Part shown: positions 11,291 to 11,757 of the stretch, in pieces
Layout: each line of letters begins with the position of its first letter
Position numbering within the stretch: position 1 is the first letter of the stretch
Assembly: GCA_963842525.1 (NCBI GenBank)
Contig: CAWJGT010000003.1
Span: 1,664,001-1,728,000, forward strand
Origin: an uncultured Holophagales bacterium
GTDB taxonomy: Bacteria; Acidobacteriota; Thermoanaerobaculia; Multivoradales; UBA5704
Direction: 5' to 3'
DNA length: 64,000 bases
Made by a program: the position numbers and the translations under genes
Notes under the pieces: model-generated
Seen by the model: the letters and a program-made list of their open reading frames with translations, nothing else
The model's database searches: none
What the model was told of the DNA's origin: nothing

Positions 11291-11342
11291 GCGATTTTTT
11301 CCCGGTTGACATGAGTTGTCTGGCCCCTGACAATCCGCTGTC

Positions 11343-11483
11343 ATGCAACTGACCTTGGAGGAAGCGGCGGCTCGCCTCGGCAGGACGCCTCGGCAAGGTC
11401 CGTGCCGGCATGGGCTGGATCTCACCCCCTCTGTCCCCATGCGCATCAAACCTACCGAGCTGCGCCCGATCGCCCCGGGTTGA
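11343..11483 (+). pseudogene. Fragment of an excisionase-type HTH (HTH_17-like) gene, possibly the DGR accessory gene
   Basis: MQLTLEEAAARLGRTPRQ, after which similarity is lost. Removing one base at ~11396 gives ...RQVR. The frame ends inside a REP element. Confidence 0.5.
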
Positions 11484-11595
11484 CACCCGGGGCTACCCAG
11501 TCCCGCCCTCCGGGCTCTCGAATTCTGGGCACTTCGACTGCCGTTCTTGCGAGCCCGGAGGGCGCCATTCGGTAGCCCAGGGTGTGAACCCTGGG
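11473..11595. repeat. Inverted REP doublet
   Basis: CCCCGGGTTGACACCCGGGGCTAC...CGCCCTCCGGGCTC pairs with GAGCCCGGAGGGCG...GTAGCCCAGGGTGTGAACCCTGGG. Confidence 0.75.
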
Positions 11596-11600
11596 CGAAG

Positions 11601-11663
11601 GCTCTGCTCGCCGACATCGGGCCGACGTACGAGCAGGGCTTCATCGACCAGAGCTACGCCTGC
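11601..11663 (+). pseudogene. 21-codon remnant of a DGR/group II-type reverse transcriptase
   Basis: ALLADIGPTYEQGFIDQSYAC matches the RT segment (H)xAL..xIxPxFExxFIxDSYACRxGxG. No RT sequence is recognisable on either side. Confidence 0.65.
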
Positions 11664-11757
11664 TGGGCGCTGACCGCCTGGTGCGCAGCCTTCGCTCGTA
11701 CCGGGGATTGTTGTTGTCAGTTTGACGACGATTGTCAGATATCTCACAAAAAATTCG

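Follow-up and report, generated by a model that had tools for sequence, protein, structure and literature searches.

Is the short stretch of DNA between two convergent genes with DGR-type 3' ends the remains of the DGR that wrote those ends, and if so, are the ends now fixed or are they still being rewritten from elsewhere? The locus that raises these questions lies in a 64-kb window, by which we mean the whole stretch of DNA analysed (contig C3, positions 1664001-1728000), of an acidobacterial genome, G000, assembled to 9.95 Mb in 34 contigs and 96.4% complete. Two target genes, T1 and T2, face each other there across a spacer of 553 bp (11245-11797). A first-pass annotation, made from the sequence alone, had seen in the spacer the start of an HTH gene, an inverted REP pair and a 21-codon RT remnant. 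It proposed that a complete DGR had been deleted here, with a breakpoint at the REP element, and that the targets were left either frozen or dependent on a remote DGR. The reading we reach, with a confidence of about 88%, is that the spacer is the wreck of a DGR core that once served both flanking genes, that this core is dead, and that both tips are fixed.

Gene order and the two target genes

The related genomes examined share the gene order TIR, MoxR, T1 and convergent T2. The first of these in the window, a gene with an N-terminal TIR domain, runs from 4930 to 7361 on the + strand (TIR_2, E 5.7e-13 on 4899-7358) and is syntenic in relatives. Its frame stays open 5' of the predicted GTG at 5103, the TIR domain starts before that GTG, and no ATG, GTG or TTG start is reported in frame upstream of 5103. 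Directly upstream of T1 is the gene for a MoxR-type AAA+ ATPase (6944-8278, + strand; AAA_5, E 3.8e-14). Its match to the bpMoxR model is weak (E 0.007, under the cut-off), and its relatives are 64-71% identical and syntenic.

T1 (8596-11244, + strand) is an open frame of 882 aa that carries a lengthy N-terminal extension and a C-terminal FGE-sulfatase/CLec-fold domain (PF03781, E 4.4e-53). T2 (11798-13486, - strand; 562 aa) likewise ends in an FGE-sulfatase/CLec-fold domain (PF03781, E 5.9e-51, covering profile positions 4-255 of 255) and is 45% identical to the T1 C-terminus. The 3' parts of the two genes form an inverted repeat of 437 nt, 73% complementary overall. T1 is part of a TIR/MoxR-ATPase conflict-type system. 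Over residues 12-94 of T1 (8596-8880) the NCBIfam model for the MadC-family VWA domain gives a match at E 2e-7, far under its cut-off, a hint that the MoxR ATPase may have a diverged vWA partner in this N-terminal extension.

Orthologous loci and their cores

What stands between these two genes where the core is intact? With the unique N-terminal 635 residues of T1 as query, orthologues 52-57% identical to T1 were found in 4 of the 60 related genomes searched, and an alignment of the orthologues then found 37 public loci, distributed over Acidobacteriota, Myxococcota, several proteobacterial lineages and a Phycisphaeraceae record. The T2 orthologues, 58-64% identical, are convergent with T1 in the relatives. 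The cassette L073, from an uncultured proteobacterial source, reads T1, an HTH_17 gene (189 aa; E 8e-8), a bAvd gene (110 aa; E 4e-12), a TR, an RVT_1 RT gene (345 aa; E 7e-14) and convergent T2. The L073 bAvd protein also matches NCBIfam DivGenRetAVD at E 6e-11, under its cut-off; residue numbers given below for RT remnants are those of the L073 RT. At L073 and two further loci, L066 and L058, one TR aligns with both variable repeats (VRs), and 98 of the 105 mismatches fall at TR adenines. A single TR for both VRs, together with adenine-confined mismatches, identifies loci of the L073/L066/L058 type as bona fide two-target DGRs.

A genome of the same genus as the window, G002, has a gap of 1397 nt between its targets, with an HTH gene and an RT on the T2 strand. 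The HTH gene begins MQLTIEQAAARLGKSVRQ (PF12728, E 4e-8); the RT is open and N-terminally truncated, with 276 codons, contains ALLTEIGPPYESGFIDQSFAC and ends LGHDRLVRSLVSYRGLLLSI. When this RT was used as query against 92 genomes, the only orthologues were itself and a frameshifted copy in G024 (63% identical); eight other matches, at most 45% identical, belong to other DGRs.

How often is the core kept? A census was made of 19 loci with a T1 3' end and a convergent T2, namely the window and 18 of the 37 public loci; the 19 public loci left out had a contig end, a T1 end that was not found, or no convergent gene. Scoring was by tblastn at E <=1e-2, plus a TR search by each locus's own VR1. The complete HTH-Avd-TR-RT core is present at four of the 19 (L058, L066, L071 and L073), with the L058 avd split over two frames, so that relatives do hold an intact cassette between the same two genes, as the first-pass annotation had predicted. 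Two loci have a TR and a truncated part: L075, where the HTH gene and T1 are cut, and L076, where the RT retains residues 16-194 only. Remnants without a TR are found at five: the window, L046 (which is G002), L047 (which is G024, with the RT in several frames), L050 and L061. L072 has a weak HTH match alone. The remaining seven, with gaps of 87-1655 nt, contain nothing recognisable by this scoring (L041, which is G020, and L043, L045, L048, L049, L052 and L063). The TR is thus absent from 13 of the 19 loci, and none of the seven acidobacterial loci has a complete core.

Two census loci show losses or gains in the targets themselves. The gap of L049 (5209-6865) holds an extra partial FGE/VR copy between the targets, without core genes, and L075 has kept avd, TR and RT, with truncation of T1's own FGE domain and of the HTH start. 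From these two states it appears that decay can affect targets as well as cores.

Remnants of the core in the spacer

The pieces that remain in the window are too short for library profiles, and orthologues and a custom profile were therefore used to identify them. The spacer opens, 3' of VR1, with a G+C-rich hairpin followed by a T run (11267-11291, + strand; 11 base pairs, of which 9 are G-C; folding energy -22.2 kcal/mol, z -3.2). It is an inverted repeat of the DGR type that is also terminator-like, and its sequence is kept downstream of VR2 and in G002. Near the other end, 3' of VR2, is a second hairpin and T run (11758-11774, - strand; 7 base pairs, of which 6 are G-C; folding energy -15.2 kcal/mol, z -2.7), so that both VRs are followed by the G+C-rich inverted repeats of a DGR locus (11267-11291 and 11774-11758).

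Behind the first hairpin comes a promoter-like site, TTGACA-17-GACAAT (11306-11334, + strand; 10 of 12 matches), which we take as the one that served the former accessory/TR/RT operon. The interval 11150-11900 contains no other such site, where shuffled sequence averages 0.1 sites, and the site lies within a block, 11267-11380, that aligns with G002 at 76%. Nine nucleotides behind it begins the peptide MQLTLEEAAARLGRTPRQ, the first 18 codons of an HTH_17-type accessory gene (11343-11396, + strand) whose intact form has 189 aa. This is the best match of the G002 HTH protein in the 64-kb window (13 of 18 identical, E 1e-3, tblastn), and its identity to L073 HTH_17 residues 1-18 is 72%, so the HTH start that the first-pass annotation placed at 11343 is real.

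The 21-codon RT remnant is equally well founded. It reads ALLADIGPTYEQGFIDQSYAC (11601-11663, + strand) and corresponds to residues 104-124 of the 345-aa intact RT, in the early RVT_1 region. Sixteen of its 21 residues are identical to the G002 RT, for which it is the top match in the window (E 6e-6; E 1e-3 when the whole 10-Mb genome is searched), and its DNA is 85% identical to that of G002 over 65 nt. Directly after it, in another frame, is a second RT remnant that the first-pass annotation had overlooked: the last 20 codons, LGADRLVRSLRSYRGLLLSV, and the TGA stop (11663-11725, + strand; residues ~326-345), which shares 17 of 20 residues with the G002 RT's C-terminal tail (E 1.3e-4). A custom profile for which six RTs of other phyla were the sole input, run against all 1495 six-frame fragments of the window, returned remnant 1 at E 4e-5 (profile positions 104-125) and remnant 2 at E 4e-3, followed by a next, unrelated match at E 0.53.

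The top three window matches of the G002 HTH and RT proteins are these three pieces, in cassette order. The DNA is collinear as well: window 11267-11380 corresponds to G002 gap positions 29-143 (76%), 11601-11665 to 536-600 (85%), and 11672-11737 to 1214-1278 (82%). With a full core present between the same genes in relatives and the window pieces collinear with it, the claim that a complete DGR once sat here is supported. What survives is 18 of 189 HTH codons and 41 of 345 RT codons, 59 codons in all. A tblastn search of the gap gave no match to Avd, and no TR was found in the gap; the catalytic motif YLRYMDD (residue 245) and LPLGSYLSQ (residue 214) are both deleted from the RT. Since Avd, TR and catalytic YxDD are all gone, the element is dead. 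Searched against Pfam, the leftover frames of 46 and 145 aa gave nothing useful. A chance resemblance of the 21-mer to an RT was considered, and was rejected on the E-values, the collinearity and the synteny.

The deletion scar and its dispersed repeat

How was the core removed? The first-pass annotation was right that it was deleted, though not in a single event: at least two deletions are required. The HTH piece breaks off at 11396/11397. It is followed by 73 nt of filler (11397-11469) with a counterpart in no cassette; this stretch had no blastn or tblastx match in the relatives' gaps, and blastn-short found nothing significant besides itself. Part of the filler, ~11421-11457, is a second small repeat, CTCACCCCC..CCCCATGCGC, with 7 regex matches genome-wide, two of them adjoining the big repeat.

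The big repeat is the inverted REP pair of the first-pass annotation, now placed at 11470-11598, and it consists of two full-length Acido-Lenti-1 units lying in the deletion scar. Its arms, 11470-11517 and 11551-11598, are 48 nt each, 85% complementary and 33 nt apart. By blastn the pair is present at 43 distinct sites genome-wide, and at 33 of these the alignment extends to 110 nt or more; the ends of the element agree from copy to copy, and the flanks are unrelated. Scored against Rfam RF01687, the arm at 11552-11595 (- strand) reaches 41 bits, over the gathering score of 37, and the arm at 11473-11516 (+ strand) reaches 30.4 bits, under that score; both match the 46-nt model along its whole length. 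The pair folds at -99.6 kcal/mol (z -10). Acido-Lenti-1 was listed as a likely non-coding RNA by Weinberg et al. (2010, PMC2864571); here it behaves as a dispersed, paired, REP/MITE-like repeat that landed in a deletion scar. A second Acido-Lenti-1 pair lies between the MoxR gene and T1 (8323-8368, - strand; 8477-8521, + strand), and the Thermoanaerobaculia relative L043 has a pair in the same MoxR-T1 intergenic position (9743-9788 and 9899-9944).

Was the repeat, then, the breakpoint? Its right edge does adjoin the first RT piece (11598 against 11601), which agrees with the first-pass annotation. The left break, however, lies 73 nt before the repeat, and the second deletion junction, at base 11663, involves no repeat at all. 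These positions also bear on the question of whether the collapse might be an artefact, produced by an assembler that jumped between copies of the dispersed repeat and dropped a real core. One can see how this might happen in a genome left in 34 contigs, with the pair at 43 places and exactly at one junction. But both the left break at 11396/97 and the junction at 11663 are outside the repeats, and relatives in other assemblies show comparable or stronger collapse at this position, with 13 of 19 loci lacking a TR. In addition, one public run, with 23% of sampled words and low-depth contigs only, yielded short contigs that match the window exactly at 10892-11124, 11336-11486 and 12221-12300 within 10800-12300, and the second of these, a separate short contig, shows the truncated arrangement. 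(The same run has many fragments of other organisms' FGE genes over 10800-12300.) An assembly artefact is accordingly so improbable that we give it almost no weight.

Might the debris have been put to a new use? The promoter-like site, at 10 of 12 matches, is conserved with G002, the repeat folds strongly and Rfam lists its unit as a candidate sRNA, so that the promoter, the 46-codon leftover frame and the repeat hairpin could conceivably give a small transcript, or act as a bidirectional terminator or insulator. Against this, the leftover frames are chimeric, with homologues only for their remnant parts; the gap content differs among relatives, with lengths from 87 to 1655 nt and no shared sequence; and the flanks of the repeat, a dispersed element, are unrelated from place to place. 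We think reuse quite unlikely, and prefer to regard the contents of the spacer as the wreck of a core.

The variable repeats

If a DGR wrote the ends of both genes, its mark should be a pattern of differences confined to adenines of the template. VR1 (11110-11241, + strand), at the 3' end of T1 and including an IMH-like G+C-rich end, is 69-76% identical to the TRs of four intact relatives; VR2 (11801-11932, - strand), at the 3' end of T2, is 71-79% identical to them. The lineage's own TR is lost, so the adenine test of VR1 against VR2 is an indirect one, made with the relatives' TRs as guide. Differences between the two VRs are scattered over 16 of 132 columns, and at 15 of the 16 at least one relative's TR has A; 10 of the 16 fall on columns with A in at least three of the four TRs (Fisher p 4e-5). 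Put otherwise, non-adenine columns are identical at 97 of 98, and adenine columns are identical at 19 of 34 and differ at 15. Both are thus CLec/FGE-fold genes that end in a VR whose differences fall at template-adenine columns, as far as the relatives' TRs can show. The 3' ends of the VRs are IMH-like and differ by a single base (G/A in CGCC[G/A]CCAGCCT). The scaffold CCTGCGCTCCGCG..TCGGCTTCCGCTG is common to most of nine orthologous gene ends, with one-base changes in T1 of G020 and of G024.

The one difference among 98 non-adenine columns makes the loss of the core look recent. The corresponding count between VR1 and VR2 is 4 in G002, 10 in G020 and 12 in G024, and 9-23 when VRs are compared between genomes. 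On these counts the tips in the window were last written after the split from G002, and not long ago. Judged from these alignments, the low count fits a recent and fast collapse. The same cleanness also fits continuing rewriting, for it equals that of the TR/VR pairs of intact loci (0-2 non-adenine mismatches each). It is a further complication that gene conversion between the inverted repeats, and not retrohoming, could account for some of the likeness of VRs within a genome.

Frozen tips or rewriting from elsewhere?

Is there, then, a TR anywhere from which the tips might still be rewritten? Searched with both VRs and the TRs of four relatives, the 9.95-Mb assembly gave only VR1, VR2 and paralogous gene ends on contig C24, and a fuzzy search of the assembly for the 65-nt scaffold, allowing at most 16 substitutions, gave only VR1 and VR2. 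A second RT of the same subfamily was not found in the genome; the nearest is 41% identical and frameshifted, with an unrelated TR. It belongs to another DGR, L019, ~715 kb from the window (C3:953000-966000), which has the genome's only other DGR-type RT (~961 kb) and its only Avd-like match (C3 ~960 kb). In L019 coordinates, that DGR spans ~5084-9000 and has an FGE-type target (5084-6322), HTH_17 (6653-7252), bAvd (7219-7668) and a TR (7647-7791), with a TIR gene upstream (3051-4484). Its TR is 89% identical over 145 nt to its VR (6152-6296), with the differences at TR adenines, and lacks similarity to VR1 and VR2; its RT is broken into two frames immediately ahead of YLRYVDD. No matching TR is in the assembly, and the other DGR combines an unrelated TR with a frameshifted RT, which makes frozen tips the most likely state. 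Of the two fates that the first-pass annotation left open for the targets, freezing is therefore favoured; for dependence on a remote DGR, the assembly offers no matching TR, and the TR of the other DGR is unrelated.

The paralogues on C24 (128680-133520, L020) are four tandem genes whose FGE domains share 53-59% identity with the T1 C-terminus. Along the row the 3' ends become less and less like a VR, the first still ending ..GFRCARAPRRQP, and no hairpin was found there, nor any RT, HTH or Avd gene nearby. These may be older orphan targets. The genome also has several multi-copy RT families of the group II intron type (C3:1641386-1642051, C9:828972, C23:404516 and 9 further full-length matches). 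Scores are the same for all members of a set in sets of 3, 4 and 3 copies, and one copy is found ~22 kb upstream of the window.

The alternative is that the targets are still diversified, by a TR and RT on unassembled DNA or in a subpopulation with an intact core, the collapsed locus being one structural variant. With an assembly 96.4% complete and in 34 contigs, such a source is possible. The single difference in 98 non-adenine columns is what active loci show, both IMH-like ends and both hairpins are intact, and there is precedent in Thiohalocapsa PB-PSB1 for use of a TR in trans and for intact variants (Doré et al. 2024, PMC10907252). Set against this are the absence of a TR from 9.95 Mb by three kinds of search and the lack of a second RT of the same subfamily, the nearest one being frameshifted and paired with an unrelated TR. 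The public contig over 11336-11486 also has the truncated form, identical to the window, though it may come from the same sample and counts for little. An exact 31-nt pattern from the IMH region had no match among metagenome contigs, in a collection that may omit records near this genome. On balance we judge continued diversification very unlikely, and hold to fixed tips.

A history for the locus

What sequence of events would account for the present arrangement? This account draws on the identity and collinearity of the remnants, on the intact cassettes of relatives with their adenine-specific TR/VR pattern, and on the absence of a TR from the assembly. The ancestral order would have been T1 with VR1, hairpin, promoter, HTH gene, avd, TR, RT, hairpin, and convergent T2 with VR2. 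RNA from the TR would have been copied by the RT with errors opposite adenines, and the cDNA would have replaced the final ~130 nt of each gene and so randomised around a dozen codons in the ligand-binding tip. One deletion would then have removed HTH codon 19 through RT residue 103, including avd and the TR, and another RT residues 125 to ~326, including the YxDD motif, the ends being joined at base 11663. The scar would also have received one or two small dispersed repeats. The survivors in this scheme are the open T1 and T2 genes, the VRs, the two hairpin/T-run elements, the promoter-like site and 59 codons of debris. With neither TR nor RT, both tips would stay at their last written sequence. 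It is probable that the lineage's own core was once active, and that its loss was recent; the two surviving hairpins, able to terminate the convergent genes, presumably now serve as their terminators.

The locus is then a clean and dated example of DGR death in which the diversified genes, their rewritten tips and the recognition elements persist. A practical consequence for annotation is that DGR-type variable tips can be recognised without a neighbouring RT.

Core orientation and the fate of the module

The cores of the census loci do not all point the same way. Eight point toward T1 and three toward T2; L046 (G002), L058 and L066 are opposite in orientation to the window, L047, L071, L073, L075 and L076. 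The window and its congener G002 thus have opposite cores, and in G002 the end with hairpin, promoter and HTH gene adjoins T2: this end moves along with the flipped core. The arrangement suggests inversion of the core by recombination between the inverted VR arms, a mechanism that we infer from the layout.

Core loss with retention of the targets is the majority state across the 19 orthologous loci, which come from several phyla, a finding relevant to how long DGR-diversified sensors in MoxR/TIR conflict systems work with a fixed specificity. Could loss of the core be the usual fate of the module? One might imagine that the inverted VR/IMH/hairpin arms recombine so that the core is flipped, lost and possibly re-acquired, and that the DGR acts in bursts, by "hit and run", on immune-type sensors that are fixed for long periods between. 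The count of non-adenine differences between VR1 and VR2 would then be a clock for the time since the last rewriting. The argument for this is the set of complete cores (4 of 19, and 0 of 7 among the acidobacterial loci), the mixed orientation, even within one genus, and the series of 1, 4, 10 and 12 non-adenine differences. We offer the generalisation tentatively and consider it unlikely as it stands; the wreck of one core, with fixed tips on both genes, is the reading that we carry forward.

Comparison with known systems

How does the locus compare with what has been described? Degenerate DGR loci of the MoxR-linked type are known already: Doré et al. (2024, PNAS, PMC10907252) report degenerate loci in which RT, TR or accessory gene is missing or pseudogenised, with MITE-like repeats inside loci. 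A limited search of the literature did not find the frequency of core loss at an orthologous two-target locus, flipped cores or a non-adenine clock, and the supplement of Doré et al. (SI Fig. S11) may show some of this. Their clade 5A comprises MoxR-linked loci in which a long target, its N-terminus free of known domains, is accompanied by a second, short CLec target and an HTH gene, with TIR neighbours. The window shares the MoxR gene upstream of a long T1, the short CLec T2, the HTH remnant and the adjacent TIR gene, and the likeness is one of gene content. In Thiohalocapsa PB-PSB1, as described by the same authors, each class has one complete locus, and long reads revealed intact variants of loci that were degenerate in the assembly; the assembly of the window, by contrast, has no complete partner with a matching TR, and its host is an acidobacterium.

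The broader comparison is with the canonical DGR of the Bordetella phage BPP-1 type. Two targets per cassette is the commonest multi-target form, found in 50 of 372 DGRs in the survey of Wu et al. (2018, NAR, PMC5758913). As in the canonical element described there, each VR in the window lies at the target's 3' end, finishes in a G+C-rich IMH-like sequence and has a G+C-rich inverted repeat downstream, and the intact relatives have the order accessory gene, TR and RT, with TR/VR differences specific to adenines. Unlike the canonical element, the present type has an extra HTH_17 gene before avd, and in the window the core amounts to only 59 codons. It differs also in that the two targets are convergent, so that their VRs form an inverted repeat around the core.
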